The notes: generated by a model not told the origin, from the letters alone. Shown: positions 1,882 to 43,624, counted from the first letter of the stretch. The stretch is 64,000 nt of DNA from an uncultured Candidatus Saccharibacteria bacterium (GCA_964559915.1 CAZLJP010000003.1:119769-183768); one strand, 5' to 3'. Made by a program: numbers and translations.

Positions 1882-3120
1882 CTATTTTATGACAGACAGC
1901 AGCGTATCCCGAAATCTTTTATGGAAATTGTCTATAGAGAATGCTACGGATGCATTTTTTATATCACCAGAGTTATATTTTCTAGAATCAAAGCCTTCTA
2001 GAACTTTTTTGAGTGATTCTGCGGTTTGCTCAGCAAAGAACTCACCAGTTTTACCAGGAACCACATAATCTAGAGCACCTCCGGCTTTGTATGCAATAAC
2101 GGGTGTCCCTGCGGCCATGGCTTCTACGGGCGCAATGCCAAAGTCGTCTTCACCGGTGAATATAAAGGCGCTAGCGGCAGCCATGTGTTCTGCAACAGAG
2201 TCATCGTCCAGGTTTGTTTGGAATGTGACAGACGGCCCAGCTGCTTTAACCAGTGCAACATGCTCTGGCCCATTGCCTCCAACAACTAGCGGTAGCCCAA
2301 GCTGAGTACAAGCCTCTATCGCCAGAATTTGACGTTTTTGAGCCACCTGACGTCCTACTACGAAGAAATATGGCCGTTTTGCTGCCGACACCTTAGCAAA
2401 TCTCTCTGTATCTATAGGCGGAAAAATAACTTCCGAATCACGGCCATAGTATCGTTTAATATCCGCCTGAATATGAGTAGAGTTGGCAATGACTATGTCT
2501 GCACGCTGAGCAGCCTTATAGTCCCAATTGCGGAGCGGACTCACCAGAAGCTTAAGCCCAAGTCGAGCCAGCGGGTTAAAAACGCCAAAGCCTGGTCGTT
2601 GCATATAAGTATCGTAATGACGCCAGTAATAGTGCGTAGGTGAGTGGCAGTAGTTTATGTGAAGGGGTAAGGGTTTAGGGGTAAGGGGTAAGAATCGCTT
2701 CCAGAAGGGGTGGTAGTTTTTGCGTACGGCGAAGGCTTCTCCGTTACCTGACGAACTAATGATTAAGTCATAGCCGGATAGGTCTATGTGGGTGAACCAC
2801 CAAATGCGCGGTATAACCATAAACTTACGAAGTTTGCCGAAGTGTTGTAGCCAGCCGGTAACTACTTTGCCATCTAGCTTGTCACGCCATTCCTGAGTAG
2901 CGTACGAGGTGTAGATAGGGGCATCAGGGAACATATGGTGTAGCTCTAACACTACTTTTTCAGCACCACCACCTACCAGCCAGTCATGGACTATAGCAAC
3001 CTTCAAGTGTGCCAAATCAGCCTGCTGACGAGCGGAGCTCGCGACCCGCTGATTTTCTTGGCGCACTGCTGTGTCAGCTGGCGTCTGTCGCTCATTCGCC
3101 GTATTATCTATACGGCTCAT
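1882..3120 (-). CDS. glycosyltransferase family 4 (GT-B, retaining type)
   Basis: Has KVAIVHDWLVGGGAEKV near the N-terminus and EDFGIAPVEAMAAGTPVIA (E-x7-E region) near the C-terminus. ATG 3120 has a strong SD (AGGAGGAG). An in-frame TTG at 3006 would give the canonical MKVAIVHDWL start and leave 3007-3185 non-coding (see findings). Confidence 0.85.
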   Translation of the reverse strand: MSRIDNTANERQTPADTAVRQENQRVASSARQQADLAHLKVAIVHDWLVGGGAEKVVLELHHMFPDAPIYTSYATQEWRDKLDGKVVTGWLQHFGKLRKFMVIPRIWWFTHIDLSGYDLIISSSGNGEAFAVRKNYHPFWKRFLPLTPKPLPLHINYCHSPTHYYWRHYDTYMQRPGFGVFNPLARLGLKLLVSPLRNWDYKAAQRADIVIANSTHIQADIKRYYGRDSEVIFPPIDTERFAKVSAAKRPYFFVVGRQVAQKRQILAIEACTQLGLPLVVGGNGPEHVALVKAAGPSVTFQTNLDDDSVAEHMAAASAFIFTGEDDFGIAPVEAMAAGTPVIAYKAGGALDYVVPGKTGEFFAEQTAESLKKVLEGFDSRKYNSGDIKNASVAFSIDNFHKRFRDTLLSVIK

Positions 3121-3165
3121 TTACTCCTCCTGGCTTCCTTGCACTGCATCCAAGCACACTTGAAG
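3001..3165. repeat. structured repeat element, copy 3 (family of three in this window)
   Basis: Closing helix CTTCAAGTGTGC (3001-3012) / GCACACTTGAAG (3154-3165). Inner stem ATCAGC/GCTGAT around hairpin CGAG-CGGAG-CTCG. Hairpin CCGTA-N-TACGG at 3099-3115. A 32-nt block (3018-3049) differs at one position from 4657-4688. Confidence 0.7.
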
Positions 3166-3185
3166 GAACCCATATGGCAAAGCTT

Positions 3186-4610
3186 TCATTTAGCCCCTGT
3201 GCCGCCAAGAACAGCGCGGATAGTTCGAATCAGAATAGAGAGGTCCAACGCAAAGCTCCAGTTCTGAACATAGTAGACGTCCAGTTTGCGGCGTTCATCA
3301 AAATCTATATTACGGCGTCCAGATATTTGTGCCAGCCCTGTCAGGCCGGATTTAACACTGAGGATGGCATGCCTTTTTTCGTAGCTATTGAGTTCTTTGG
3401 GTACTAATGCGCGCGGACCCACAAGGCTTAAATCGCCTTTTAGTACATTAAATAACTGGGGCAGTTCGTCTAAACTGCTAGCCCGTAGTAAACGGCCAAT
3501 CCGAGAAATACGGGGGTCATTGGCCAAGAAATCACCATTGCGTCGATATTTCTCTGATAGCTGTGGTTTGCCCATGGCCTGGAATGCTTCCTCGGGGCTT
3601 ATACCACTGTAGCGCTGCTTCATGGAGCGAAATTTATAGACAGTAAATTCGCGGTTGAATCTGGTCAGGCGAGTCTGCTTAAAAAATACGCCGCCCCGTG
3701 GGTCAAGTATCAAAATGAGCAATGAAATGAACCCCATGAGTGGCAGGGCGATTACCATACCAAGTGTAGTAACCAGTAAGTCAAACAGGCGTTTGACCAC
3801 GCGACCCCACCCAATGAGGGCTGTTTGGTGTACGGCAATGACTGGTAAGTTGGCAAATAGCTCAACGGTTATATTACCCACAAACAGGTCGCTGTTACCC
3901 GGCACAAAACGATATGAGACATGGTGTGTTTGTGCATATTGCAGAATCTCGTTGTTCTTATCGGTGTCTCGGTAGAGCTCAGTCTGAATAATACCGTGGG
4001 CTTGCTTGTCTACAGACGCTGCAATCGCCTTTTCGAACGTTTCATAGTTTCGAAAACCCGGCACTGATTTGCCGACAATGCCAACAACTCGTAGTCCGGT
4101 GTTTTTGGTATCACCCACAGCTGTGGCGATTTCTCGGCTAACAGCAGTATCACCAACAATCAAGATGTTACTAATGCCTAGCCCAAAACGGTACAAAACG
4201 CGGCGTAGCCAACGAGCCAGAGTCCTAAAGACTGCTAAAAATGCGAATCCTAGTCCAAGTGCATACAGCGGCACGAGTCTGCCGGGCAGCAAATTACTCT
4301 CGGTCAAAAAGTCGTAACTAATGACCGCCATAGTACCAATAGCAGAGCCAATAAGTAGCCGTCCCAGCTCAGAAAATCGCCTCTCGTATATCTCTGGGCG
4401 GTATAAACCAATAAAGGCATGAATCAATAGCCAAACAGGCAGCAGGCTAATAATCGCGGTCAGGAAATTTTCGCCGCCGACGGTTGCGATTTTTCCATCC
4501 TCGAGCAACCTAAAGCGGAGAATATATGCAGCTGCAAAGGCAGCAATCAGGGCCAAGAAGTCACCCACAAGTAGAAGGAGGGAGTATGCGAGCGAGGCGT
4601 TGTTCTTCAT
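3186..4610 (-). CDS. polyprenyl glycosylphosphotransferase (WbaP/bacterial sugar transferase family)
   Basis: 474 aa with N-terminal TM segments. C-terminal motifs FKFRSM, DPRISRIGRLLRASSLDELPQLFNVLKGDLSLVGPRA and YYVQNWSFALDLSIL are typical of the bacterial sugar transferase domain. Confidence 0.88.
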   Translation of the reverse strand: MKNNASLAYSLLLLVGDFLALIAAFAAAYILRFRLLEDGKIATVGGENFLTAIISLLPVWLLIHAFIGLYRPEIYERRFSELGRLLIGSAIGTMAVISYDFLTESNLLPGRLVPLYALGLGFAFLAVFRTLARWLRRVLYRFGLGISNILIVGDTAVSREIATAVGDTKNTGLRVVGIVGKSVPGFRNYETFEKAIAASVDKQAHGIIQTELYRDTDKNNEILQYAQTHHVSYRFVPGNSDLFVGNITVELFANLPVIAVHQTALIGWGRVVKRLFDLLVTTLGMVIALPLMGFISLLILILDPRGGVFFKQTRLTRFNREFTVYKFRSMKQRYSGISPEEAFQAMGKPQLSEKYRRNGDFLANDPRISRIGRLLRASSLDELPQLFNVLKGDLSLVGPRALVPKELNSYEKRHAILSVKSGLTGLAQISGRRNIDFDERRKLDVYYVQNWSFALDLSILIRTIRAVLGGTGAK

Positions 4611-4635
4611 ATTATGAGAAGTATTGTACCACTGT

Positions 4636-4808
4636 TAGCACGTATCCCACACCAGCCAGCCTGCTCACGAGCGGAGCTCGCGACCCGCCGGCTTCTTGTG
4701 CCTAGCACATTTTTCCTCTGCGATACTCCCTTCTTCGTATCAAACATACGGTTCGGTCTGTTTCTCAAGGAGAAAATGCGCTAGGCATCAAGTGTGGAAT
4801 GCGTGCTA
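4636..4808. repeat. structured repeat element, copy 1
   Basis: Closing helix TAGCACG (4636-4642) / CGTGCTA (4802-4808). Hairpin CGAG-CGGAG-CTCG. Long helix 4700-4718 / 4770-4786. Hairpin CGTAT-CAAAC-ATACG (4736-4750). Shares the unpaired block GATACTCCCTTC with copy 2. Lies in the divergent intergenic region between 4610(-) and 4839(+). Confidence 0.7.
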
Positions 4809-4838
4809 TACTTTTAGTAATCTGAACAAAACAGAAAC

Positions 4839-5288
4839 ATGACAAAAAATATTACAAAGATCACTAAGAAGCAACGCAAAGAGTTTACCAGGTTCGCCGA
4901 ATACATGGTTGGTGGTGGTGTCTGGTTCTGGAGCGGCTACGTTATTATTGTTGTTCTGGACAATCATATTGGATTGTTCTGGGCGAATGTTCTGGGTCAA
5001 ACCGTTGGCCTGACGCTCAATTTCATCATTGAACGTTATTGGGCGTTTAAGACCAAGAAACCCGCCAAACTTGGCGTGGCCACCAGACGATACATTGTGT
5101 ACACGGCGCTGAATGCGTTTGGGCTGAACTACCTCATTCTGCTGGGTCTCAAGAACGTAGGTATTGACCCGGCAATCGGCCAATTTATTGCCTCTGCCTT
5201 CTTTACTGCGTGGAATTACTACTGGTATAAAGTGTATGTATTTAAGGGCAACGAGAAGCCTAAACACGTAAAACACCACACGCCATGA
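4839..5288 (+). CDS. GtrA-family membrane protein
   Basis: 149 aa with four predicted TM helices and NFIIERYWAFK after TM2, as in GtrA-like proteins of glycan translocation. ATGA overlap with the next gene. Confidence 0.65.
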   Translation: MTKNITKITKKQRKEFTRFAEYMVGGGVWFWSGYVIIVVLDNHIGLFWANVLGQTVGLTLNFIIERYWAFKTKKPAKLGVATRRYIVYTALNAFGLNYLILLGLKNVGIDPAIGQFIASAFFTAWNYYWYKVYVFKGNEKPKHVKHHTP

Positions 5289-5731
5289 CAGAGACAACCG
5301 TACGACCAACCAAAAAACAGCGAGAATTACTGACGTATATAGAACAGTTCATTGGCGAGCACGGCTACAGCCCCAGCTACCGCGAAATCATGGCGGGTCT
5401 GCAATACAATTCCGTGGCAACCGTGGCGCTACACGTCAATAACCTCATAAAACGTGGCCATATTCGCAAACGCGACCACTCCGCTCGCTCCATAGAAGTA
5501 GTTGACTGGGTCGAAGAGCCAACACTCCGGACCAACGAGATAAAGCCTAGCGAGGAAAAATGGTTGGTAGAGAAGGTAGAGCACCTATTTGCCGAGGCAG
5601 AACAGGGTGCGTTGAGCCAGCAACAGCTTGATGAGTTGTACGTGCTGATTGGCGCGCTAAAAGTACTGGGCCTGGACGGCGCAGCCCAGTCATTTATTCC
5701 TCGGCTTAGCGGCTTAAAGGCGCATTCATGA
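5285..5731 (+). CDS. LexA N-terminal DNA-binding-domain protein lacking the S24 peptidase domain
   Basis: TKKQRELLTYIEQFIGEHGYSPSYREIMAGLQYNSVATVALHVNNLIKRGHIRK matches the LexA winged-helix domain. The C-terminal 70 aa have no Ser/Lys peptidase motifs. ATGA overlaps at both ends (5285-5288 and 5728-5731). Confidence 0.7.
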   Translation: MTETTVRPTKKQRELLTYIEQFIGEHGYSPSYREIMAGLQYNSVATVALHVNNLIKRGHIRKRDHSARSIEVVDWVEEPTLRTNEIKPSEEKWLVEKVEHLFAEAEQGALSQQQLDELYVLIGALKVLGLDGAAQSFIPRLSGLKAHS

Positions 5732-6552
5732 ATCTATTACACGCTATTTTGCTGGGTATAATCGAAGGTATCACCGAGTTCCTGCCCGTTTCCAGTACAG
5801 GACATCTGACAATTGCCGAGAAACTACTGGGCTATGACATTACCCAGCCTGCGATGACCGCATTCACTGCATTTATTCAGGTGGGCGCCACCTTGGCCAC
5901 GGTTTGGTATTTTAGAGATGATATTTGGCGTCTGACCAAGGGCTGGGTCGTGGGCTTGTTGGATGCCAACAAGCGCTCAACAGATTACCGTATGGGTTGG
6001 GCAGTTATTATTGGCTCCATACCAATTGCGCTGGTTGGGCTTGCGTTCAGACATCACATAGAAACCAGCCTGCGCAGCCTGTGGCTGGTGGCGGCTGCTT
6101 TGTTGCTATGGAGTGGTGTAATGTATGCCGCAGAGCACTATGGCCGCCAAAAGCGCTCCGAGAAGACAGCTACTTGGCGCGACACACTGATTGTGGGTGT
6201 GATGCAATGTATTGCGTTGATACCTGGCGTATCGCGGTCTGGCGCCACGATTTCTGGCTCGCTGTTTCTTGGTTTTGACCGCATAACGGCCACGCGTTTG
6301 TCGTTCTACCTCTCTATACCAGCACTCTTCGCAGCCGGCATACTAGAAGCTGTTACTAAGGCCGATGATATCGGCACTCAGATAGGCTGGTGGCCCACCA
6401 TCTGGGCCACGGTGACTTCGGGTATTGTGGCGTATATCAGCGTGGCCTGGCTGCTCAAGTTTATTGCTACCCATTCGTTCAAAAGCTTCATTATCTACCG
6501 CATAGGGCTTGGTTTATTACTGGTAGTCCTGCTCGCTCTTGGGGTTCTTTAA
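5728..6552 (+). CDS. uppP: undecaprenyl-diphosphate phosphatase
   Basis: MNLLHAILLGIIEGITEFLPVSSTGHL and PGVSRSGATISG are the two BacA/UppP signature motifs. 274-aa polytopic membrane protein. Confidence 0.92.
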   Translation: MNLLHAILLGIIEGITEFLPVSSTGHLTIAEKLLGYDITQPAMTAFTAFIQVGATLATVWYFRDDIWRLTKGWVVGLLDANKRSTDYRMGWAVIIGSIPIALVGLAFRHHIETSLRSLWLVAAALLLWSGVMYAAEHYGRQKRSEKTATWRDTLIVGVMQCIALIPGVSRSGATISGSLFLGFDRITATRLSFYLSIPALFAAGILEAVTKADDIGTQIGWWPTIWATVTSGIVAYISVAWLLKFIATHSFKSFIIYRIGLGLLLVVLLALGVL

Positions 6553-6623
6553 CACAGATTTGGTTGTTAAAGAACACCGATAGATGTGCTATCATAAGCG
6601 TAATTAAATAGAGAACTATAAAC

Positions 6624-7268
6624 ATGGCAAAACGAAGGATTTTCAACCGTATATCAATAAAGAATGTACTGTATGTGCTAGTACTACTAGGCGCTATTGG
6701 CTTCGGTGCTTACAACTTTAAGCAAAACCAGGACCTACGTAATGCTTCACCAGAGAAGCTACAGCAGGCTCAGGCAGACGACACTATTACTGCCGTTGGC
6801 AAGCTGTACGACCTGCCCAAGAACGAAAAACCCGATGTCGCCACCGTTAAAGACAAAGAAGCGCTTAAGAAGCAGTACCCATTCTTTGACCAAGCAGAGA
6901 ACAATGACGTGGTGTTGATTTACAAAGACGCTAAGCTGGCTATCCTGTACCGTCCATCAACCAACCGTCTGGTTAAAGTCGGCCCAGTGAATATCGAATC
7001 TGGTCTTTCTATCAAAACCTTAGGCTCAGACACAGAACGCAAGGCAGTCGAGGCACTCCTAACTGCCAACAAGCTGACATTTAATTCTGGTGGCGTTAGC
7101 AAGACTGCAGTGAGCGGCGTAATAGTGGTTGATTTGACTGGCAAAAATGCCGAACAAGCTAAGAGATTAGCTGAAATCGTAAAGGGTACCGTAGGACAAC
7201 TGCCAGCTGGCGAAGATAAGCCAGCGGACGGTGACCTACTGGTCATCGCCGGCCCAGCCGCTCAGTAG
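6624..7268 (+). CDS. hypothetical membrane-anchored protein
   Basis: 214-aa ORF with a single N-terminal TM segment (VLYVLVLLGAIGFGAY). No recognisable motif. Confidence 0.6.
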   Translation: MAKRRIFNRISIKNVLYVLVLLGAIGFGAYNFKQNQDLRNASPEKLQQAQADDTITAVGKLYDLPKNEKPDVATVKDKEALKKQYPFFDQAENNDVVLIYKDAKLAILYRPSTNRLVKVGPVNIESGLSIKTLGSDTERKAVEALLTANKLTFNSGGVSKTAVSGVIVVDLTGKNAEQAKRLAEIVKGTVGQLPAGEDKPADGDLLVIAGPAAQ

Positions 7269-7271
7269 CCA

Positions 7272-7531
7272 ATAGCACGCACCATCCGGTCTGCTTTCTG
7301 GCGGAGCCAGAAACTCTACCGGATTCTTGGCCTCATATCCAATTTTCTCTTCCGATACTCCCTTCACCGTACTGTTTTGTACGGCTCGGTCCGTTTCTCA
7401 GAGAGAAATTGAACCTGAGTCTCAAGTGCGAACTACTGGATAGTAGGCACCACTGGTAGCGTACGCTAGGGCTAGCGTGGATTGTGTAGCATATACTACT
7501 ACAGCTAGTGTGATGAATGCGTGGTATGCTA
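7272..7531. repeat. structured repeat element, copy 2 (with ~85-nt internal expansion)
   Basis: Stem ATCCGG (7284-7289) / CCGGAT (7319-7324) around hairpin TTCTGG-CGGAG-CCAGAA. GATACTCCCTTC at 7354-7365. Hairpin CCGTAC-TGTTTT-GTACGG (7367-7384). Helix 7340-7350 / 7400-7411. Ends TAGCACGC ... GCGTGgtatGCTA. Extra hairpins at 7430-7515 are absent from copy 1. Confidence 0.65.
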
Positions 7532-7550
7532 ATAGCACTTAACAAAAACA

Positions 7551-7650
7551 AGCTGGAAGACGGGTGTAATACCCGAACTGTGCCGCAACGGTGAAAGTCC
7601 GATACAGCGTAAACCTCTCGAGCAAGAGTGAGCATACCTTTGTATAAAGG
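7551..7650 (+). promoter_or_regulatory. riboswitch-like structured 5' leader (class unassigned)
   Basis: Compact junction: P1 GCTG (7552-7555) / CAGC (7605-7608), hairpin CGGGT-GTAAT-ACCCG, hairpin CCG-CAA-CGG, and single-stranded GGTGAAAGTCCGATA. Followed directly by an intrinsic terminator and then the ATG of the 7688 gene. Confidence 0.4.
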
Positions 7651-7687
7651 CCCTCATTTTCGTTCCAGAGAATGAGGGTATTTTTTT
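7651..7687 (+). terminator. intrinsic terminator / attenuator immediately upstream of the 7688 start codon
   Basis: CCCTCATT (7651-7658) pairs with AATGAGGG (7671-7678), followed by TATTTTTTT, then ATG at 7688. Confidence 0.7.
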
Positions 7688-9142
7688 ATGGAACTGTTGG
7701 CCGAGCAAGCCGAGCTACAAACACAAGCAAACTATTGCTTCGTGGATGATATCCCGATGGTGGCCATTGCCCGTGGTCACGAACGTTTTGCTGCCCAAGA
7801 ACTACTTGAATCACGACGTCTTACCGGAGTGGTCGAGAGAGGTGGTCAGATACCCGTCGATGCGCTGTCTACAGCTCATAACGTGCTGAATACCAGAAGA
7901 GTATATGGCGAGGATAGCGATGAACACCAACAAAGCCTGAAGGGGCTTGTGCTGGACTGTCAGCGCTTGGTGGGTGAGTGGTATCGCAAGAAGAAGCCAG
8001 AATATTTCGCCCCCGTCCGGCACGTTTTTAACCAGGATACTGAGGAGTTCTTCTCGCATGGGCTGTCTATTCGGCAGATGACAGACAATGCACTGATACC
8101 TATTGATGACAATCGAGAAGACGAGGAGCGCCGCGTCAACGAACGAGTCGAGGAGGCAACCCCACAGCTGCTTCGAAAGCTTGGTTGTATCGCGATTGGG
8201 CAGGAGTCAATCCGTACCATTTCTGAATGTACGGACAAGGCAATCGAAGATTATGCCCACGACATGAAGCATGGTAATAAACACCGTGGATACAGTGGCT
8301 ACGTGCCAGAGATTCAAAAAGTCATGATTCGCGACATTCGTTTGGATGACAAGTCGAATGATAGGTTTGAGGAGCAGATTGGGCTGCCCGGTACGTATAT
8401 TACTCATGAAATTATTAAGATGGCACTAGAGGAACAAGGGCTGGATGCAGCCCGACTTGATAAGACGACCCTACACGGTTCGCAAATACTTGCCCGCGAC
8501 AGCCTGATGGATTTTGTGGAGCTGCTGGACAGCGTTGCGAGCCGAGAGTTCTGTACAGAAGTTTTTATGGGCGAAATGGTACCCGAGGGTGCCGATAAGA
8601 ATTACGGCACTTTCCGCGAAGAAGCCTTGCAGCGCCAAGAAGACCTCAAAGACATGGCCACAACGACTGCCAACTTTGTACTAGACCTGGCCAAGGCTAA
8701 TTTTAGCCGCGAAAAAGCGCCCGCGCATGTTGAGGAATTTGTAAAGAAACAGCTACTTAGTCTGGCAAAACATGATACATCTGTAGCCGAGCAGATGTTT
8801 GATAAACCAACAGCAGCAGGACTGCAGCAAGTGGCCATACTAGAGCAAGCCGGCCGGTTCCAAGAAGCCTTTGAGTTGATGCAGACAGTAGAGAAAGCGG
8901 CGCCGGGTGGTGGGTTTTGTGGTGCTGGCAGCTGTGGGCTAGAAAGTGTGAACATTAGTAGTGAAAGCGGCAAAGACCTTGTCAAAAAGCTGAACGCAGA
9001 TAGCAAAGATACTATCGTCAAAGACACTGAACGGGCCTGCCGCTGCGGCAAGAAATCCATTGTCTATGCGTATAATAAAAACAAGGTAAATAAGCTCTGT
9101 ACTAGTTGTGGCTCATTCGAATCAAAAGTAAGTAAAGTGTAG
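7688..9142 (+). CDS. hypothetical protein with C-terminal Cys-rich (zinc-ribbon-like) tail
   Basis: 484-aa ORF with no family recognised. C-terminus has CGAGSCG ... CRCG ... CTSCG cysteine pairs. Confidence 0.7.
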   Translation: MELLAEQAELQTQANYCFVDDIPMVAIARGHERFAAQELLESRRLTGVVERGGQIPVDALSTAHNVLNTRRVYGEDSDEHQQSLKGLVLDCQRLVGEWYRKKKPEYFAPVRHVFNQDTEEFFSHGLSIRQMTDNALIPIDDNREDEERRVNERVEEATPQLLRKLGCIAIGQESIRTISECTDKAIEDYAHDMKHGNKHRGYSGYVPEIQKVMIRDIRLDDKSNDRFEEQIGLPGTYITHEIIKMALEEQGLDAARLDKTTLHGSQILARDSLMDFVELLDSVASREFCTEVFMGEMVPEGADKNYGTFREEALQRQEDLKDMATTTANFVLDLAKANFSREKAPAHVEEFVKKQLLSLAKHDTSVAEQMFDKPTAAGLQQVAILEQAGRFQEAFELMQTVEKAAPGGGFCGAGSCGLESVNISSESGKDLVKKLNADSKDTIVKDTERACRCGKKSIVYAYNKNKVNKLCTSCGSFESKVSKV

Positions 9143-33245: not shown

Positions 33246-34108
33246 TGCCTCCCGTGTCTCGAAATCCTATCGTACCGGGTGAAGGCCAGATGGACACAGA
33301 GGGCCATATCACTCATATTGAACCAGCGTTTAATCCAGAACGTGCACGCTGTTCCGTGGCTAGTATGCTCAATGCCGAAAAGCTCGGCCTGAACGAGCGT
33401 GATTATCTTTTTGTTCGACCAGAAATGGTTGAGGCTATCCAACCTGGCGAGATGCGAAAATCACTCATAGATGTTCCTCGTTCTATTCAGGATAGTCAGT
33501 TTGTCGTTTCCTATACTGAATTCGGACGTGCAGGTGGTCGAGAGCGCTATATTGCAGTTACTGCCCCAGAGGCAAAGGTTTTACCGCGTAGCATAGCAGC
33601 GCTCGGTAACAACGCACGCATCGCATCACGTGCCAAAGCTGTTGGACCTGTTGTAACAAATCGTGACCAGTTACGGGGAGAGCGCGCAAACATTCATGCC
33701 CAGGAATCAAAGCTTCCTGGCGTTGCTACATACCTAGAATCGCTCAAGAATCAGGGTAGGCTTATTGCCAAATTCAAAAAGGCTTCAGACGGTAGGAACA
33801 TTGGTCTATCAATGTTTGGCAGTGAAGGTAAGTTTCGCGAAAATTTTGCATATCTTCAGACGTTTATCATCGATGATATGGTGCGTGCGTACGGTGAACA
33901 GCAAAAATTAACAGAGTCACAGATGAAAATGGTGGCCAACACCGTGACTTATGATATCGTTCTAGGTCCCAATAAATTCGGTAATTTTCATAACTTTATG
34001 AAATTTGCTTTAGAATATAATCGTCACAAACAAGAGTTAGCCCTCCAGCGCAAGATAGCAATGGAACGAAACATAGGAAAGTATCTCACCAGCCTTGCCC
34101 AAGAATAA
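33245..34108 (+). CDS. hypothetical protein
   Basis: 287-aa ORF. No motif recognised. Confidence 0.6.
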   Translation: MPPVSRNPIVPGEGQMDTEGHITHIEPAFNPERARCSVASMLNAEKLGLNERDYLFVRPEMVEAIQPGEMRKSLIDVPRSIQDSQFVVSYTEFGRAGGRERYIAVTAPEAKVLPRSIAALGNNARIASRAKAVGPVVTNRDQLRGERANIHAQESKLPGVATYLESLKNQGRLIAKFKKASDGRNIGLSMFGSEGKFRENFAYLQTFIIDDMVRAYGEQQKLTESQMKMVANTVTYDIVLGPNKFGNFHNFMKFALEYNRHKQELALQRKIAMERNIGKYLTSLAQE

Positions 34109-35099
34109 CTTGCCCTTTTTTGTATTGGCACCGATGGACGACGTTACGGACACGGTGTTCCGCCAGGTCGTAGCAACAACTGCTGCGGCTGATTTGTACT
34201 TTACGGAGTTTGTAAATGTTGATGGCCTACAGAGTCCCGGCCGCAGCAAATTGCTCAAGAAATTGCAGTTTGTTCCGTCTGAGACTCAGTTGGTAGCCCA
34301 GCTATGGGGCAAGGAGCCAGAGAACTTCCGCAAAACTGCCCAGCAAATTGTTGACGGTACCTTTGCGCGCGAGCTTGGTTTGCCTGAAGGTGTTAACTTC
34401 GTGGGCATAGACCTCAATATGGGCTGCCCAGCCAAATCGGAGGTTAAAAATGGTACTTGTAGCGCACTGATTCAGAATCGGCCACTGGCAGGGGAGATTA
34501 TCAAAGCAACACAAGAGGGCGCGGGTAATTTACCTGTAAGTGTAAAGACACGCTTGGGCTGGAACGAGATTGACCACACGTGGCTAGAATTTTTACTTTC
34601 ACAAAAACTTAACATGTTAACTATTCATGGCCGCACCAAAAAAGAAATGAGCAAAGTCCCTGCGCACTGGGACGAGATTGGCAAAGTCCGTGAGCTTCGT
34701 GACAAGCTAGCTCCAGATACATTGATTGTTGGTAATGGCGACGTAGAATCTCGGGTTCAAGGTCTAGAACTAGCCAAAAAGTATGGCTTGGACGGTATTA
34801 TGATTGGCCGTGGCGTGTTCCACGACCCCTATGTATTTGCCAAAGATACGCCGTGGGCAGATGTGCCCCGCGAAGAGCGCCTGGCATTATATCGTCGACA
34901 TGTACAGCTCTTTGCAGACACCTGGCAGGCAGGCGAACGGCCCATCCATACGCTGAACAAATTCTGCAAAGTCTATATTAGTGACTTTGACGGCGCCAAA
35001 GAACTACGTGAGCAACTGATGGCCGCCGATTCTACGGACACACTACTGCAGCTTTTGGACGCAGCGTTGGTTATATCACAACCAGCTACCCCGCTATAA
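34095..35099 (+). CDS. dus: tRNA-dihydrouridine synthase
   Basis: FVLAPMDDVTDTVFRQV, DLNMGCP (catalytic Cys), HGRT and GNGDV are Dus TIM-barrel motifs. The start is uncertain (TTG 34095 or ATG 34134). Confidence 0.88.
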   Translation: MPKNNLPFFVLAPMDDVTDTVFRQVVATTAAADLYFTEFVNVDGLQSPGRSKLLKKLQFVPSETQLVAQLWGKEPENFRKTAQQIVDGTFARELGLPEGVNFVGIDLNMGCPAKSEVKNGTCSALIQNRPLAGEIIKATQEGAGNLPVSVKTRLGWNEIDHTWLEFLLSQKLNMLTIHGRTKKEMSKVPAHWDEIGKVRELRDKLAPDTLIVGNGDVESRVQGLELAKKYGLDGIMIGRGVFHDPYVFAKDTPWADVPREERLALYRRHVQLFADTWQAGERPIHTLNKFCKVYISDFDGAKELREQLMAADSTDTLLQLLDAALVISQPATPL

Positions 35100-36063: not shown

Positions 36064-36139
36064 TGGTGGGGGTGGAAGGACTTGAACCTTCGACCAAAGG
36101 ATTATGAGTCCTCTGCTCTAACCACTGAGCTACACCCCC
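36064..36139 (-). tRNA. tRNA, anticodon CAT, elongator type (Met or lysidine-dependent Ile2)
   Basis: Reverse complement GGGGGTGTAGCTCAGTGGTTAGAGCAGAGGACTCATAATCCTTTGGTCGAAGGTTCAAGTCCTTCCACCCCCACCA folds as a 76-nt cloverleaf (7/4/5/5-bp stems) with an encoded CCA. Confidence 0.92.
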
Positions 36140-36329
36140 TCGTCGAAGTGTGATTCTGCGTTGCCGCAAGCTGCCGACAAAACAAGTTTGCTCGGCAACT
36201 GTGGGCAACCCAGAAAGCCTTCTCCTCTCAAAACTGTAAACAGCAGCAAGCTGCTTGGTTTCCAGTTTTGGCATGAACTGCAAGGTAACAGATGTGAGTA
36301 TACCATTTCGTGTATACTTATCTCTAGTC

Positions 36330-36788
36330 ATGTTCGACAAAATAAAAACTTATTACAACCACGCACTCGTTCAGCAATTCAAGGATGTGCGGTTTGTGGG
36401 TTTTGTCGTATTCGGTATCTTAGTATTGCTGGTAAGCTGGAGTGGTGTATCTGTTATCGAAGCTAATTATGATTTGCAAAAGCAGGTCTCCAAACTAGAG
36501 CAAGAGAATCAAGTAGTTGCGTTAGAGAATAACAATCTGAAACTCCAGAACCAGTACTATAACAGTGACCAATACCTAGAACTTACGGCTCGCCGCCAGT
36601 TTGGCAAAGGCCAGCCCGGCGAGAAGTTATTATTGGTACCCAAGAGTGTAGCGCTCAAGTATGTTGCTGATATTCCAGAGGCTGCTAAGGAAGCTGCAGC
36701 AACACCCGTCTTGGAAAAGCCACTACTGCAACGCAACATCGAATCTTGGGTAGATTTCTTTCTGCACCGCGGTAGCTTAGACAATTGA
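36330..36788 (+). CDS. septum formation initiator family protein (FtsB/DivIC-like)
   Basis: One TM helix (FVGFVVFGILVLLVSW), then a coiled coil LQKQVSKLEQENQVVALENNNLKLQNQ and YLELTARRQFG. The track ORF 36255 starts inside the tRNA flank, so ATG 36330 is preferred. Confidence 0.7.
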   Translation: MFDKIKTYYNHALVQQFKDVRFVGFVVFGILVLLVSWSGVSVIEANYDLQKQVSKLEQENQVVALENNNLKLQNQYYNSDQYLELTARRQFGKGQPGEKLLLVPKSVALKYVADIPEAAKEAAATPVLEKPLLQRNIESWVDFFLHRGSLDN

Positions 36789-36863
36789 CATTCCTACCTC
36801 TGTTTGTTAAGATAATACGGCTAAACAGCCCGCGGATACGTGCTCAATCGTATCCGCTAGTAA

Positions 36864-36938
36864 CGCGGGGTAGAGCAGTGGCAGCTCGTGTGGCTCATAA
36901 CCACAAGGTCCCAGGTTCGAGTCCTGGCCCCGCTACCA
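36864..36938 (+). tRNA. initiator tRNA-fMet (anticodon CAT)
   Basis: CGCGGGGTAGAGCAGTGGCAGCTCGTGTGGCTCATAACCACAAGGTCCCAGGTTCGAGTCCTGGCCCCGCTACCA is a 75-nt cloverleaf. It has an unpaired 1:72 position (C/T) and an A11:T24 pair as in bacterial initiators, and is close to the E. coli tRNA-fMet sequence as recalled. Encoded CCA. Confidence 0.85.
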
Positions 36939-37074
36939 AGAAAAGAGTCCCAACACAGTTGGGGCTTTTTTCTTGGTACTGAGACAAGATTCGAGCCAAA
37001 AAGGTTCGGTCTTCAGTCACAGGCCCCAGCGCAGCGGGCGCCTGGATTGAAGTGCGCTGTCCTGGCCCCGCTAC
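36913..37074 (+). repeat. left direct repeat unit: tRNA-fMet 3' end, terminator hairpin, spacer, second copy of the tRNA 3' end
   Basis: TCCTGGCCCCGCTAC occurs at 36922-36936 and again at 37060-37074. Blocks CGCTACCAAGAAAA, hairpin + T-run, GAGCC, AAGGTTCGGTC, GTGCGCT and CCTGGCCCCGCTAC recur in the same order at 40875-41060. Confidence 0.8.
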
Positions 37075-37273
37075 GTAAATAGCCATATTGGAACAAAGCA
37101 AGCTGATAACTACATGCTGCGCTGGGGATACCTGCTTGACCATGATTCTAGCTTGGACGAACTCATTCATGGCACCAGCAACGCCTGGTACGCACTCACA
37201 AATCTGCAATAGTCAACCAAGCAAAAGCATTCCCACCGGACCTAGGCATACCTGGGTGTATTGGTGTAAAAAC

Positions 37274-37882
37274 CTAACCCTTTACGTACTGGAGCTGTCT
37301 GCGGACACCAGACACATTAACGCGATAGTTATACAAACTTTTGCTGACACAGAAGCGTTCCAGCGAATCCTCAAGAGCTTCATTGCGATAGGCCGTGTTC
37401 AACAGGGCTGTTCTCGGCAAAAGTAAGCAGCCCGCAAACCAGTTAGCTTCATTCTCTTGGATTTGATCAAAATCCCTCAGGGCGTATGCTTCATACACAT
37501 AAACCTTTGCTGGTTCGTGTCCACGAATAATATGGGCGAGTTCATGCATTACATTACTAGCTTGGCGAGCCTGCGAATGCCGTGGATTCACAACGATTAT
37601 TTGCTTATCAGCGGTATGTACGGTTACCGCTGACCATTCATCCCCGGCTGGTGATGACAGATAAGCGTAGGTGTCTGTGGCTAGGCCGGACACTTGATCT
37701 AGCTCCAGAATTGTGACGCCCATATTCTTAGCAAGCTCTGTTGGGGGAAGTGGGCTTGAAGGATCTAGATCCATGCGTTTTCGAATACTTATCGCCGTAT
37801 TCTCGCACCAAGTCTTGAAGCCACGCTCAAAACGTTTCTCCTCAGTCTTTGAGATAGCTAATGAGTTGGTCTCACTAGCCAC
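37274..37882 (-). CDS. ImmA/IrrE-family (M78) metallopeptidase
   Basis: HEXXH motif in NVMHELAHIIRGHE with downstream ENEANWFAGCLLLP. GTG start lies 1 nt after the stop of the upstream XRE gene. Confidence 0.85.
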   Translation of the reverse strand: MASETNSLAISKTEEKRFERGFKTWCENTAISIRKRMDLDPSSPLPPTELAKNMGVTILELDQVSGLATDTYAYLSSPAGDEWSAVTVHTADKQIIVVNPRHSQARQASNVMHELAHIIRGHEPAKVYVYEAYALRDFDQIQENEANWFAGCLLLPRTALLNTAYRNEALEDSLERFCVSKSLYNYRVNVSGVRRQLQYVKG

Positions 37883-37883
37883 G

Positions 37884-38213
37884 TTAAAATCCTTGTTCGG
37901 CTGCCTTTTGAACGGTAATAATTAGCTTCGCTAAATGATTGGCCGTATCAGGACTCATCGCCTTATGTGCTCTAAAGTGTGCGTGAACGGGGGCTGCCAT
38001 ATCGGGTAATACGCCGCTGGGAGTATTGATGCCAAGCAGCGTACTCGGGTCAACGTTCAGCCATCTACAAATAGCCCGGAAAGTATCCAGGTCAGGTTGT
38101 TTGCCATTCTCTACACGGGACAGTGTCGCAGGACTAATACCGATGTCTTCGGCTACCTTGCGAATACCTTGCCCACCTCGCTTCTGCTTAATCTTGAGAC
38201 TAAGTTCGTCCAT
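37884..38213 (-). CDS. XRE-family helix-turn-helix transcriptional regulator
   Basis: IRKVAEDIGISPATLSRVENGKQPDLDTFRAICRWLNV is a classic HTH_3 (Cro/C1) domain. 109 aa. Confidence 0.88.
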   Translation of the reverse strand: MDELSLKIKQKRGGQGIRKVAEDIGISPATLSRVENGKQPDLDTFRAICRWLNVDPSTLLGINTPSGVLPDMAAPVHAHFRAHKAMSPDTANHLAKLIITVQKAAEQGF

Positions 38214-38370
38214 ATTTACCTCTGTTCCATTATACTATACATGTTCAACTCTTGCAACGCTGTTTCATATGTGAGACACTAGTTCTAAGACTTTCACTCG
38301 ACAGGTTAGAGAGACCAGCCAGATAAAAAGTCAAAAATCACCAACTAGCCTGTCAGGAGGAACAAGTAAC

Positions 38371-38655
38371 ATGGCAGTACGTATCATCGCAATTAGAAAA
38401 CCTGGGGACAATTACAACGCCTACGAAGCGATCAGTCATTACAAGTGGCTAAACGAGGGCACCGGCAAATCGGCAATTGCCGATCGTCCTACCATGGTTG
38501 ACTGGGTCGAGAATAAGAACGGACGAGCTTACGTTAGTAGCCAAGAGGGCACCGTCGACTGTTTCGTTAACACAAGCGCTAGGGGCACCAAGTTTCTTCA
38601 GACAAATGCTGATAGCCGTTCTTCGAATAACTTGTTAAATCTTCCGGGGTGTTGA
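38371..38655 (+). CDS. DUF3892-like small protein
   Basis: 94 aa. ISHYKW...TMVDWVENKNGRAYV...KFLQTNADSRSSNNLLNLPGC resembles the DUF3892 consensus (C-terminal NNLLxLPxC). SD AGGAGG before the ATG. Confidence 0.6.
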   Translation: MAVRIIAIRKPGDNYNAYEAISHYKWLNEGTGKSAIADRPTMVDWVENKNGRAYVSSQEGTVDCFVNTSARGTKFLQTNADSRSSNNLLNLPGC

Positions 38656-38657
38656 CT

Positions 38658-39398
38658 ATGGGCGATTCGATTCAGAACCCTCGCACTGTATTCCAGCAGC
38701 TTCAGGAGAGCATGTTGGCCGAACTTGAAATGACCAAGGCGACCGTGAATCACGCCCCCACCCAAGGCGCTGCGACTGAAGATAATTGGCTCAAACTGTT
38801 CCAGGACTATCTTCCTAGCCGGTACCGAGCCGAGAGAGGTCAGGTAATGGACTCTAGGGGTGGAATGAGTGACCAAATCGATGTGATTATATTCGATCGA
38901 CACTTCACTCCGTTCTTATTCAACTACAAAGGTGTATATTTTGTTCCAGCAGAGAGTGTCTACGCCGTAATTGAGGTAAAGCCCACGCTTAACAAGAGCT
39001 ACATACAATACGCTGGCGAGAAGGCGGCCTCAGTACGAAGGCTCCACAGGACCAGCGTGCCGATACCGCACGCTGGCGGAGTTTATCCACCAAAGGTACT
39101 ATTCCCGATATTGGGTGGTGTCGTCGCACGATCTGCCGAATGGACTACGGGTCTCGGTGGTGCTTTTAAAAAGGCCATCGTCACGAAAGACCCCAATATG
39201 ATGATTGATTTTGGCTGCGCTCTTAATGCTGGATCTTTCAAGGTTGATTACTCAGGTATCCAGCCAGCTATCACTATCAGTGACCAGAATGTACTGCTGG
39301 CCTTCATCATGGGCTTATTGGACAAGTTGCAATCCTTGGCTAGCGTGCCGGCGCTGGATTACAAGGCATACGGAGAACAGGGAGCTGCAAATGTCTGA
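38658..39398 (+). CDS. PD-(D/E)xK-like putative nuclease (DUF6602-like)
   Basis: GGMSDQIDVIIFD followed 23 aa later by SVYAVIEVKPTL gives a D...E-x-K arrangement typical of the restriction-endonuclease fold. The track ORF starts at GTG 38649, overlapping the upstream stop. ATG 38658 is the alternative. Confidence 0.55.
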   Translation: MGDSIQNPRTVFQQLQESMLAELEMTKATVNHAPTQGAATEDNWLKLFQDYLPSRYRAERGQVMDSRGGMSDQIDVIIFDRHFTPFLFNYKGVYFVPAESVYAVIEVKPTLNKSYIQYAGEKAASVRRLHRTSVPIPHAGGVYPPKVLFPILGGVVARSAEWTTGLGGAFKKAIVTKDPNMMIDFGCALNAGSFKVDYSGIQPAITISDQNVLLAFIMGLLDKLQSLASVPALDYKAYGEQGAANV

Positions 39399-40776
39399 AG
39401 TTAAAAGCTTATTCAAGGAATACCTGAGTGCCATTGAGCCAGACACAAAAGCAAAAAATATTGCTGCAAAGAGCCATGTTCAACCCAGAGAGTATCTTGA
39501 GAATGACGAGGTAATCGGTGACACAGTCGAGGATTCATTCTTGTACGGTTCTTACCGACGACACACCGCTATACACGATATTAAGGATGTTGATATCGTT
39601 ATGATCTCGAGTTTTGACCCAGATACAGATACTCCTAACACTGTGCTGAACAAATTGCATGCAGCTTTAAAGCGATGTTATGGAGACACCAACGTTCTTG
39701 AACTCAACCGCCGATCTGTTTGTGTCACGAACCCGCTGCCGGATGAAGAGACTGACCTAACGCTCGACATACTGCCTGCAGTTGAAGTTAACGATGGAAG
39801 TGGATATCTGCTAGTTCCAGACCGTGATCAAAAAGATTGGATACTCACTAACCCACGCGGTCACATAGAAGCGATTACAACGGCTAATAAGAAGCTGGAT
39901 AAAACGCTGGTACCGATGATAAAAATCATGAAGGCTTGGTGGCATCACCAGTCGTCACTTATTACCGGTGATTCAACTCAGAAGCTCCGGCCTAAAGGAT
40001 TCTGGATAGAAACACTAGTTCTTACTCATTTTGATTCATCTGCAGACAATTGGGCGCAGCGCTTTATAGAACTCCTCGAGAACATAACAACATCGTACCC
40101 TAAGGGTTCTGATGTACCTGAATTGCCAGATCCGGGTATGCCTGAGTCGATTCTTCAGACCAGTATGAGCAAGTCTGAGTTTGAAGTATTCATGAATACA
40201 GCTAGAAGCTCCTTGGGACTGGCGTACTCTGCATTTAACGAGACGGACCGACACGCCAGCTCTCAAACATGGTCACAGATTTTTGGCGATCACTTCCCAA
40301 TTGAAGAGGCAAAGGAGAAGCAAAAGTTTCTTACTGGGCAACAGTACGTACTGGGCAACATTAACCACGCGGTCGACTTGAGTTTCCCTTACTCCGTGAA
40401 TGGACAAGCAAGCCTCCGTGCAGAGCTCTATCGCCGCAATTACGATAATCGCAGGCTGAAGGTAAGATTTGGCACCCTGCAGCCACACGACTCAATAACC
40501 AGTGGTTTACACATCCGATTTAAGGCATGGACTGATGTCACGCTCCCTTATCGTGTGTACTGGCGTGTGGTGAATACTGGAGCACACGCAGCACAAGACA
40601 AGGGTTTGAGAGGCAAGCCCTTTCTAGATGACTCAGGCACTGAGCTCACTAGATGGGAGCCTACAGAATACACTGGTAAGCATTGGATGGAGTGCTTCAT
40701 TGTTAAGGGTGGTGAGGTAGTAGCTGCCAGTGAACGCTTCTACATCAACATCACTAACCCTAAGTGGGCTACGTAG
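39391..40776 (+). CDS. Pol-beta-fold nucleotidyltransferase, SMODS/CD-NTase-like, with uncharacterised C-terminal domain
   Basis: SFLYGSYRRHTAIHDIKDVDIVMI (G-S ... DxD) and TLDILPAVE (third acidic residue), then NPRGHIEA...LVPMIKIMKAWW as in SMODS-type cyclases. The ~180-aa C-terminal region is beta-rich. ATG 39391 overlaps the upstream stop (ATGTCTGA). The track ORF start at 39205 lies inside the preceding gene. Confidence 0.7.
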   Translation: MSEVKSLFKEYLSAIEPDTKAKNIAAKSHVQPREYLENDEVIGDTVEDSFLYGSYRRHTAIHDIKDVDIVMISSFDPDTDTPNTVLNKLHAALKRCYGDTNVLELNRRSVCVTNPLPDEETDLTLDILPAVEVNDGSGYLLVPDRDQKDWILTNPRGHIEAITTANKKLDKTLVPMIKIMKAWWHHQSSLITGDSTQKLRPKGFWIETLVLTHFDSSADNWAQRFIELLENITTSYPKGSDVPELPDPGMPESILQTSMSKSEFEVFMNTARSSLGLAYSAFNETDRHASSQTWSQIFGDHFPIEEAKEKQKFLTGQQYVLGNINHAVDLSFPYSVNGQASLRAELYRRNYDNRRLKVRFGTLQPHDSITSGLHIRFKAWTDVTLPYRVYWRVVNTGAHAAQDKGLRGKPFLDDSGTELTRWEPTEYTGKHWMECFIVKGGEVVAASERFYINITNPKWAT

Positions 40777-40874
40777 CTGAAGGCAACATACAGTTCCACT
40801 CCTAGTTGCTAGAGGAAGCTAACTGATTGGCTGATCTGATTAGGGGCTTCCAGCGCAGTATCTCCTTACAGATT

Positions 40875-41060
40875 AGGTTCCATTGCGATTGCACGCACGC
40901 TACCAAGAAAAAAGCTTTGGAATGGTTCCAAAGCTTTTTTCTTTGTTCGGAGCAGGACGAGAGCCTGATGCGCGGTAGCCAAGGTTCGGTCATCCAGTCA
41001 GAGCACAGGGGTTTACTCCGAGCACTGGTGCAGATGTGCGCTACCCTGGCCCCGCTACCA
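40875..41060 (+). repeat. right direct repeat unit (degenerate tRNA 3' end, hairpin, spacer, tRNA 3'-end copy)
   Basis: AGGTTC...CGCTACCAAGAAAA (40875-40911), a perfect 16-bp hairpin at 40907-40941, AAGGTTCGGTC at 40981-40991, and CCCTGGCCCCGCTACCA at 41044-41060. Confidence 0.8.
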
Positions 41061-41070
41061 TAAGCGTTCT

Positions 41071-41098
41071 GACCTCTGGAAATCAGAGGTCTTTTTTT
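41071..41098 (+). terminator. intrinsic terminator
   Basis: GACCTCTG-GAAAT-CAGAGGTC followed by TTTTTTT. Confidence 0.8.
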
Positions 41099-41132
41099 AT
41101 GCCCAAGTTTCAGCTATGCTTAAGTTAATTAA

Positions 41133-41627
41133 ATGGTGGCTCACATGAAGAAAGATGAAAATGGTTTCAGTACTACAATAATCTTAACGCTGGTGGCAGT
41201 TCTAGCACTGATTGGTGCTATTGGCTGGTATGTATCAAGCTCTGGCGATGGTAAGAGTTGTGGCTCCAGAGATTTAGGAAACACGATTTCCGCCGACTCT
41301 AATCAACCGGCCGAGTCAACAAACGACTGCTTTGAACAAGCCTTTGCTCATTGTGAAAAAGCTACATATAGCATCAAATACTCTGGTTTTGATACGACAG
41401 CTCAGTATTCAATACAGGGTAAAGATGCAAAATCTGGTAAGTGCAGAGGCGGGTATAAGTACACAGAGCACTCCACGAAGAAATTGGTCGGCAAGTATAT
41501 GTACTGCGAGTTAGACCAATCAACCACGCCTTTTATGACTGCATTTAGCAATGCTAGTAGTGGTTCTCAGCATGAGCTAGAACAGCGCTGCAAAGGACCT
41601 TTACTAGAAGGACCCCTCGGACCTTAG
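41133..41627 (+). CDS. hypothetical membrane-anchored Cys-containing protein
   Basis: 164 aa with an N-terminal hydrophobic anchor (TTIILTLVAVLALIGAIGWYV) and six Cys in the ectodomain. ATG 41145 is an alternative start. Confidence 0.6.
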   Translation: MVAHMKKDENGFSTTIILTLVAVLALIGAIGWYVSSSGDGKSCGSRDLGNTISADSNQPAESTNDCFEQAFAHCEKATYSIKYSGFDTTAQYSIQGKDAKSGKCRGGYKYTEHSTKKLVGKYMYCELDQSTTPFMTAFSNASSGSQHELEQRCKGPLLEGPLGP

Positions 41628-41747
41628 ATTTTTTCATCTTGCTAACCCTTCAAGAATATCGTTCCAATTCGAATGAACTACGGCTACCAAGCGCAGGCAT
41701 TATGAACTCAGAAAAATCTGGGATCTTTATTTGCTATAGTGAGGTAG

Positions 41748-42194: not shown

Positions 42195-42449
42195 GAGGTC
42201 CTAGTCTGCTTCGGATGAACCTCGGGCCTTATTTTATAATGTTCTAATATGTGATTAGGGAAATGTCAAATACGGGCGTATAATTATAGATGTAGATAAG
42301 CTTAATGCCAAGTACCGCACAGGGAGCTAACCAAAAATTGTTGTTAGGCCATTGAGCAGTAACCTCTAATGAAAGGACCTCATTATGGCCAAAGACAAGG
42401 GACGAAAAGAAATCAAAAAAGTTAAGCAACCCAAGAGCAAGATTTAATC

Positions 42450-43599: not shown

Positions 43600-43624
43600 C
43601 AGGCGTCATGCTACAATAACGCTT

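Follow-up and report, generated by a model that had tools for sequence, protein, structure and literature searches.

A Y-shaped repeat of about 170 nucleotides in Saccharibacteria genomes, a candidate counterpart of the Rickettsia palindromic elements

A 64,000-nucleotide stretch from an uncultured Candidatus Saccharibacteria bacterium (GCA_964559915.1, CAZLJP010000003.1:119769-183768; hereafter the window) contains three homologous copies, at approximately 2999-3167, 4639-4805 and 7269-7439 by covariance model, of a previously undescribed repeat of about 170 nt that folds into a Y shape and is dispersed among the genomes of Saccharibacteria. That the host belongs to the Saccharibacteria (TM7) is shown by the polyprenyl-phosphate sugar transferase (Pfam Bac_transf) encoded beside the copies. 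Copies share one structure with a strand-specific pairing bias, occupy sites that are empty in relatives, lie in spacers, RNA genes and open reading frames (ORFs), and leave open the frames of the ORFs that they interrupt. We think it probable, with reservations set out below, that these are Saccharibacteria-wide non-autonomous insertion elements that form a three-way junction on one strand and resemble the 'protein-coding palindromes' known as Rickettsia palindromic elements (RPEs). This reading follows from the polymorphism of the sites, the indifference to orientation, the open-frame insertions into ORFs and the insertions into RNA genes, the clustering and mosaicism of copies, and the absence of coding capacity.

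A repeat family in Saccharibacteria genomes

A profile search of the window (nhmmer) recovered the three copies with E = 5e-52 to 8e-38, and a covariance model (R1; its E-values are rough) scored copy 3 at 147.7, copy 2 at 145.2 and copy 1 at 132.8 bits, confirming the homology claimed for them in the original prediction, a note made by a model from the sequence alone. R1 found exactly three matches in the window, every one on the minus strand, and repeat finding, three-way alignment, profile search and R1 all failed to detect a fourth copy within the 64 kb.

Pattern scanning of species-representative genomes returned 11 loci, 10 in Saccharibacteria and one in a bin labelled Prolixibacteraceae, while the corresponding metagenome scan returned 65 loci, about 45 of them true copies; a scan of viral contigs with the core pattern gave 0 matches. 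The sample analysed here comprises the window and the fetched loci of Saccharibacteria genomes and metagenomes, labelled L003, L004 and so on, with genes in the flanks taken from crude ORF calls. Across the fetched loci R1 produced 66 good matches in 81 sources, and every full-length match falls on a contig of Saccharibacteria type. Because both collection scans demanded the invariant loop and its flanks, the sample is biased towards well-conserved copies; its unbiased part is the 11 R1 matches without the search pattern, which only the model recovered. Genomes carry about 1-5 copies (GCA_964639295, for example, has 3 pattern matches in ~640 kb).

As the original prediction had supposed, the fold belongs to no known Rfam family: cmscan with Rfam 15 gave no match to the element in the window at the gathering threshold, or in 2900-7700 on both strands at E <= 10, and Rfam searches of L030 and of L014, L015 and L037 returned nothing for the element. 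The sole Rfam match in the region is a neighbouring adenosylcobalamin (AdoCbl-II) riboswitch at 7538-7614. [quoted passage not shown]

Two loci of the collection stand apart. The match in the Prolixibacteraceae-labelled bin (L013; JALOCD010000139.1) is a full-length element of 133 bits on a 9-kb scaffold, which is probably a mis-binned Saccharibacteria contig. At L030, positions 170-256 of a contig that is 67% GC and not Saccharibacteria-like hold a hairpin that matches the P4-P5 arm only (43 bits) and has its own closing stem; judging from this one hairpin, P4-P5 may have existed earlier as a hairpin module of its own that is more widely distributed.

The consensus fold is a three-way junction

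Forty-five copies, aligned on the complement of the strand favoured by the original prediction, yielded a consensus of 57 base pairs that forms a three-way junction, a fold shared by about 60 copies beyond those of the window: P1 is the closing helix, P4-P5 the long arm and P2-P3 the short one. Of the helices first proposed, (i) is P1, (ii) P2, (iii) P3, (v) P5 and (vi) P4. On the element strand, 5′→3′, the order is P1 5′ arm, CUUG(A/G), P4-P5, (G)CCAAGA, P2, internal loop, P3, P2′, two unpaired nucleotides and P1 3′ arm. P1 is hypervariable, at ~8-20 bp (mean 13) with several pair types at all 13 pairs. P4 consists of short helices parted by purine-rich and tandem G-A loops, and P5 ends in a tip hairpin, GCCGUAC-loop-GUACGGU, whose basal G.U pair is kept in 31 of 45 sequences. 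The short arm carries an invariant internal loop, GGNGU/AGCAG, and its P3 is closed by a GC-UCC-GC triloop.

Both-sided changes occur in 46 of the 57 consensus pairs. Over the 45 sequences, 90.4% of paired cells hold a pair, compared with 65.7% in column shuffles and 33-42% when partners are slid, and 730 double-change cells were observed against 239 in shuffles (covariation score 0.678 versus 0.226). None of 500 shuffles reached the observed pairing and covariation, which also exceeded all six slid-partner controls. The proposal that pairing is kept while sequence changes, and that the copies are more than a plain duplication, is thus borne out. One caveat applies: much of the covariation is replacement of whole helices or arms between copies, and so it is weaker proof of stepwise selection on an RNA than the counts suggest. 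Between copy 3 and L076, for instance, only 5% of unpaired positions differ, yet there are 10 double changes, mostly in P1-P3. Shuffled sequence folds far less well than the window copies, whose z reaches -8.4.

Two further pairings involve invariant partners. The CAAG of (G)CCAAGA can pair with the invariant CUUG at the other junction, so that the block TTCTTGG, originally called unpaired, contributes its CTTG to the consensus helix; these pairs never vary, and with both sides invariant the junction pairing is unproven. GCGGAG could alternatively pair with CUCCGC in competition with P3, and here too both partners are invariant, one of them being part of the search pattern. The distance between the ends of P1 is 166-173 nt. 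No multiple-of-three rule was seen in these lengths, which are taken between P1 ends that need not be the true insertion ends.

The structural constraint is strand-specific

The original prediction read the fold on the plus strand of the window. Folding energies and G.U counts both favour the minus strand. Each window copy folds better on the minus strand than on the plus strand; for copy 2 (7269-7439) the values are -77.8 kcal/mol (z = -8.2) and -55.9 kcal/mol (z = -4.3), and the plus strand with the ends first given reaches a z of only -2.35. Copy 1 folds at z = -8.4 on the minus strand. The ratio of G.U to A.C pairs on the element strand was 249:62 in the model alignment of all copies and 188:59 by hand tally of the pair table from a plain MAFFT alignment. 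It was 116:19 in copies sense to their genes and 52:20 in antisense copies (Fisher p = 0.024), with no reversal in the latter. The structural constraint is therefore strand-specific and lies on the minus strand of the window. The observation that the three copies share one DNA orientation in three different transcriptional contexts holds for all of them.

Relative to flanking GC skew, the element strand gave 26 negative and 10 positive cases (p = 0.048), a weak trend among copies that are not independent. The window has positive GC skew over its whole length, and its plus strand, which carries 47 of the 65 long ORFs, is probably the leading one; the G.U-rich strand of all three window elements is opposite to it.

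Insertion sites are polymorphic and their contexts unrelated

Relatives whose transferase is 70-79% identical to that of the window keep the same gene order, and in four of them sites 1 and 3 are empty. At site 3 the Bac_transf gene and the downstream gene for a GT4 glycosyltransferase overlap by 4 nt in L003, L004, L006 and L007, where GT4 is 366 aa. The spacer between gtrA and Bac_transf, site 1, measures 228 nt in the window and 68-108 nt in relatives. At site 2 L037 has a copy, and L004, L006 and L007 have none, their spacer ahead of the riboswitch being ~170 nt shorter. Conversely, a site after dsbA holds a copy in L004 and L037 and is empty in the window, where a model search with the filter off found no decayed remnant. 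The original prediction tied the element to an envelope-glycan gene cluster, an association that does not survive these comparisons: the window sites are empty in syntenic relatives, and elsewhere copies lie beside unrelated genes.

Neighbouring or interrupted genes include that for ribosomal protein L27 (the L27 gene), yebC, mnmA, a ruvA-like gene, dus, rarA, comEC, GT4, pilin, 5S rRNA and a riboswitch. Nor is there a constant sense position in the 5′ untranslated region of related genes, as a cis-regulatory leader would have: between co-directional genes 12 copies are sense and 13 antisense (9 copies in the same tally lie inside ORFs), and the downstream genes are unrelated. Because the genomes are compact, an insertion into a spacer abuts both neighbours. 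In about 22 of 60 copies a start codon in the same orientation lies -22 to +5 nt from the P1 3′ end, which places the Shine-Dalgarno sequence inside P1, and in about 17 the stop codon of an opposite-strand gene stands there instead. The end of a LexA-like gene in L003 (1-132) has been replaced by an antisense copy, which provides the stop in place of the last codons, at the junction where the lexA-like gene and uppP overlap in the window; the contig ends inside this element, and several short-read contigs end within elements, as is usual for repeats.

Insertions within genes keep the frame. The dus ORF runs through two elements in L052 and through one in L058 and L060, so that the Pfam Dus matches are split by the inserts into three and two stretches; the uninterrupted dus of the window (34095-35099) places the inserts in alpha-to-beta loops. 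Three further genes are interrupted in the same way: rarA in L080, ahead of the Walker B strand; an S-adenosylmethionine (SAM)-dependent methyltransferase gene, ahead of motif I, in L055 and L083; and a type IV pilin gene, in its leader, in L029. All eight intragenic copies scored are sense and open in the frame that reads the invariant loop as Ser-Ser-Ala (the SSA frame; ...GVAS-SAG-KQA...): the five with an exact GCTCCGC loop were scored in that frame, and the three without it are read through. This frame is open in only 5 of 46 other copies. A predicted insert peptide from Dus and RarA reads ...GGVAGSAGQQAK..., and the peptides diverge fast. The open frames argue that intragenic inserts are translated rather than spliced out. 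Older intragenic copies lack the invariant loop and score as low as 50 bits. A coding repeat was considered and rejected: copies 1 and 2 differ by an indel that disrupts their common frame, and stops occur in most intergenic copies, so the conservation is at the nucleotide level.

Structured RNA genes are also hosts. In L014 (~6990-7165) an element lies in a hairpin loop of the orthologous cobalamin riboswitch, between GCAACGGU and GAUAGUCCGA, and Rfam no longer detects this riboswitch at E <= 0.01. In L015 (6977-8000) an element on the rRNA strand fills the spacer between 23S and 5S, and its P1 3′ end abuts the first base of 5S rRNA.

Copies also cluster and appear to be mosaic. At least 10 loci hold 2-3 copies within 1-6 kb. 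In the window, copies 1 and 3 share the short arm P2-P3 (97% identity over 32 nt) and differ in the long arm, the type of which copy 1 shares with copy 2, a pattern of arm exchange.

The three copies in the window

Coordinates of the copies, their arms and the adjoining native segments are as follows; those of the helices come from the model alignment.

2999-3167, minus strand: copy 3, whole, from P1 to P1′ (147.7 bits)
3155-3167, minus strand: copy 3 P1 5′ arm, CCUUCAAGUGUGC
2999-3011, minus strand: copy 3 P1 3′ arm, GCACACUUGAAGG, overlapping native GT4 L-K-V codons
3062-3148, minus strand: copy 3 long arm P4-P5, type A, with tip hairpin 3100-3114
3014-3055, minus strand: copy 3 short arm P2-P3, with loop 3032-3038 (the invariant GC-UCC-GC)
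3121-3189, minus strand: remnant of the original GT4 start, in which ATG 3189 opens 22 codons ending in TAA
4639-4805, minus strand: copy 1 with the 13-bp P1 of the model (132.8 bits); pairing extends to 4636-4808
4701-4785, minus strand: copy 1 long arm P4-P5, type B, with tip hairpin 4736-4750
4654-4693, minus strand: copy 1 short arm P2-P3, with loop 4671-4677
7269-7439, minus strand: copy 2, true extent (145.2 bits), with closing helix 7269-7281 paired with 7427-7439
7331-7418, minus strand: copy 2 long arm P4-P5, type B, with tip hairpin 7368-7383
7284-7324, minus strand: copy 2 short arm P2-P3, with loop 7301-7307
7440-7531, plus strand: native spacer or promoter region upstream of the AdoCbl riboswitch, not element; aligns with element-free L004, L006 and L007 (TAGCGTATACTACTACAGCTAGCG...)

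Copy 3 is inserted in the N-terminal coding region of the GT4 gene. It lies in the SSA frame relative to the original GT4 ATG at 3189, and the frame runs from that ATG through a single TAA into ATG 3120, which the TAA directly precedes in frame (translation MKALPYGFLQVCLDAVQGSQEE*MSRIDN); copy 3 is thus an in-frame insertion that now contains one stop. The outer CCUUCAA of its P1 5′ arm is complementary to native GT4 codons, UUGAAGG, and its long arm bears GGAGGAG followed by the ATG at 3120. The present start of GT4 may be this ATG, behind GGAGGAG, or TTG 3005. The longest-ORF call for GT4 (1882-3120) gives 412 aa, of which the 46 aa at the N-terminus come from the element and extend the protein beyond the 366 aa of relatives.

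Copy 1 separates two back-to-back promoters. Extended -10 boxes lie at 4612-4632 (TGGTACAAT, Bac_transf, minus strand) and 4800-4815 (TGCTATACT, gtrA, plus strand), and the TG of the gtrA box comes from the element end; in L004 the two boxes are only 7 nt apart. Since copy 1 lies exactly between them, it is probably upstream of both transcription starts.

Copy 2 begins right after the stop codon of a 214-aa gene and is antisense to both neighbours. It had been drawn as 7272-7531 with an expansion of ~85 nt. Its true end is 7439, and 7440-7531 is native sequence conserved in element-free relatives; hence neither the supposed AATAGCAC flanks nor the helix TAGCACGC/GCGTG..GCTA belongs to the element. 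Downstream, 7538-7686 holds the AdoCbl-II riboswitch (37.9 bits) and a terminator-like hairpin, ahead of a 484-aa ORF (7688-9142) that has no Pfam match and carries a C-terminal CxxC...CxxC motif. This arrangement is kept in L004, L006, L007 and L037, and the ORF is an uncharacterised cobalamin-regulated protein in Saccharibacteria.

Discussion

The polymorphism, contexts and mosaicism described above suggest a mechanism whereby the element would be copied, often locally, into new sites by machinery acting in trans. This machinery would recognise a single strand, whether RNA or ssDNA, by its invariant internal motifs rather than by the variable ends, and recombination would swap arms between copies. 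The insertions that survive would be the harmless ones, in the spacers of compact genomes, the loops of structured RNAs and the surface loops of proteins. In proteins, one orientation and one frame would stay open and be translated as a hydrophilic insert, and the paired ends would let the insert fold on itself, leaving the flanking RNA free to function. Mobility in trans, the single-stranded intermediate, translation of the intragenic copies and self-insulation are our inferences.

Several observations weigh against this proposal. Copies at the same site in diverged genomes have an element identity of 0.68-0.90 compared with 0.37-0.59 at third codon positions, and such conservation holds even for the antisense copy 2 relative to L037; four orthologous copies upstream of the L27 gene show compensatory change in P1. 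Neutral selfish DNA explains this pattern less well than would a function, at host level or intrinsic, or frequent gene conversion. The stronger G.U bias of sense copies hints at selection on host transcripts. There is no conserved terminal inverted repeat, the ends of P1 pairing and varying most, and no consistent terminal dinucleotide or target-site duplication (TA termini in 5 of 60, with no near-identical filled and empty pair compared); the L058 copy has an ACTTTGC direct repeat at its flanks. Neither the neighbourhood of the copies nor ten window ORFs searched against Pfam showed a gene for a transposase, reverse transcriptase or endonuclease, and the copy number of ~3-5 per genome compares with hundreds for classical MITEs and RPEs. 

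By eye, the element contains no convincing -35/-10 promoter pair on either strand. Outer P1 is often complementary to the native sequence 3′ of the insertion, for example to codons of GT4 and dus, to the Shine-Dalgarno sequence and AUG of the L27 gene, and to the stop-codon region in L037. Such complementarity could come from selection, from quasi-palindrome template switching or from the insertion mechanism.

The main rival is a function, intrinsic or at host level, for which the strong conservation of copies at orthologous sites and the strand bias both allow. The element might be a domesticated RNA module kept by host selection as an insulator or stabiliser, as an RNase processing site, or as a translational-coupling device in which P1 hides the Shine-Dalgarno sequence until an upstream ribosome opens it. 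This would account for same-site copies being far more conserved than synonymous sites, for the P1 covariation among the orthologous L27-gene copies, for the ~22 of 60 copies with a Shine-Dalgarno sequence inside P1, and for the higher G.U bias of sense copies. However, intergenic sense and antisense counts are equal, the associated genes share no common function, close relatives with the same operons have empty sites, intragenic copies persist without the invariant loop down to 50 bits, and in a compact genome any spacer insertion adjoins a start or stop codon; we therefore regard domestication as possible but unlikely. A strand-specific functional module of another sort also seems unlikely, either one in which the variable 5′ end pairs beside its target in guide-directed homing, which would explain outer P1 as an inverted copy of the native flank, or a protein-bound or catalytic three-way junction that purifying selection in the host maintains at orthologous sites, coding regions among them. 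The same inverted flank, together with variable ends around conserved internal hairpins, orientation independent of transcription, local clustering, and whole-helix replacement with few one-sided intermediates, could be expected if the active form were ssDNA, whether as a substrate of an HUH-type enzyme (IS200/IS605 or RAYT-like) or through replication template switching, with covariation arising by quasi-palindrome correction. We consider this quite unlikely: the strong bias of G.U over A.C and the conserved G.U by tandem G-A pairs are features characteristic of RNA, an HUH gene did not turn up, and the link to flanking GC skew is weak.

Two more familiar kinds of RNA were weighed alongside these. 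A classical cis-regulatory RNA of envelope-glycan genes, a riboswitch or protein-binding leader, would suit the structured three-way junction with its invariant loop and junction nucleotides, the regulon-like 1-5 copies per genome, and the two of three window copies that precede glycosyl-transfer genes on the better-folding strand. It is already contradicted by context, and so very improbable, as copy 1 lies upstream of the Bac_transf -10 box and copy 2 is antisense, relatives have the same operon without the element, copies lie in ORFs, a riboswitch loop and an rRNA spacer, and the downstream genes are incoherent. We give equally little credence to an intervening sequence removed from RNA, a tiny intron or an RNase III-excised insert whose P1 joins the cut sites. 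The ends do always pair, copies sit close to protein motifs of high conservation, within a riboswitch loop and next to 5S rRNA, and the host belongs to the CPR, a group known for rRNA insertions. Against this, the intragenic copies are all stop-free in one frame, which excision would not need; there is no match to group I or II introns or to ribozymes in Rfam; 170 nt is shorter than known self-splicing introns; and the lengths show no constraint that would suggest defined splice sites.

The proposed insertion element is best compared with RPEs, for which intergenic, in-frame intragenic and RNA-gene insertions have been described (Ogata et al. 2000, 2002, as reviewed in PMC2229807 and PMC10969869). 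Both are non-coding palindromic repeats of ~100-170 nt with paired 5′ and 3′ ends in a reduced-genome, host-dependent bacterium; both lie in spacers, in frame within conserved enzyme genes, where they encode a hydrophilic peptide, and in structured RNA genes; neither has a known transposase; and both keep copies at orthologous sites across species. Here the in-frame sites are two in dus and one each in rarA, the SAM methyltransferase gene, the pilin leader and the GT4 N-terminus. The likeness that we claim is one of behaviour and does not extend to sequence homology with RPE-1 to RPE-10. RPEs form a single long stem-loop whereas this element forms a three-way junction, in which the termini are least conserved and the invariant nucleotides lie in internal loops and junctions; RPEs number hundreds per genome, in an alphaproteobacterium, and this element a few, in a CPR epibiont. 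Because shape, ends, copy number and host differ, we class it as RPE-like in kind and not as a member of the RPE family.

Other repeats resemble it less closely. In being small, non-coding, multi-copy and polymorphic in presence the element is like classical MITEs, and like the Correia/NEMIS, ERIC and RUP elements it is non-autonomous, could be co-transcribed with its neighbours in either orientation and would yield stable stem-loop transcripts; those families, however, are marked by terminal inverted repeats that are conserved, as a rule by TA termini and target duplications, and by a cognate insertion sequence transposase, none of which was found here. The original prediction had named a scattered, decaying MITE as the outcome that would undo it. 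The copies are scattered and behave as if mobile, but are not decaying. RNase III-excised intervening sequences of rRNA are sporadic inserts of ~100-200 nt whose ends form a long stem and which are tolerated in structured RNAs; they differ in that they are not known outside rRNA helices or in ORFs, and are not known to share an internal architecture across sites. The CIR repeats of Caulobacter and Brucella, of ~110 nt, have a predicted two-armed RNA with a conserved motif in the terminal loop (PMC2229807), but no closing helix; they contain a GANTC methylation motif, are never intragenic and are closed in all six frames. An integron attC or cassette array was rejected: the flanking genes are core genes, syntenic with element-free relatives, and the P1 ends lack a common core motif.

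Protein-coding palindromes have hitherto been regarded as a peculiarity of Rickettsia, and the element described here would be a second, independent case, in Saccharibacteria of the CPR, suggesting a general route by which small genomes gain peptide inserts and RNA-gene inserts. Its invariant internal motifs and covariance model provide a means to search for the mobilising machinery, a question that for RPEs has been open for 25 years. The element also matters for annotation: it causes wrong gene calls (GT4 of 412 instead of 366 aa; dus split or lengthened), breaks short-read assemblies and can hide riboswitches from model searches.

Elsewhere in the window, the stretch 36067-45862 is bounded by tRNA genes (36067-36139, 36864-36935 and 45789-45862) and may be an integrated island. 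It contains an IrrE/ImmA-type M78 peptidase and XRE repressor pair (37274-38213) and a cyclic-oligonucleotide synthase with SMODS and AGS_C domains (39205-40776), a defence gene like those of cyclic-oligonucleotide-based anti-phage signalling systems (CBASS).

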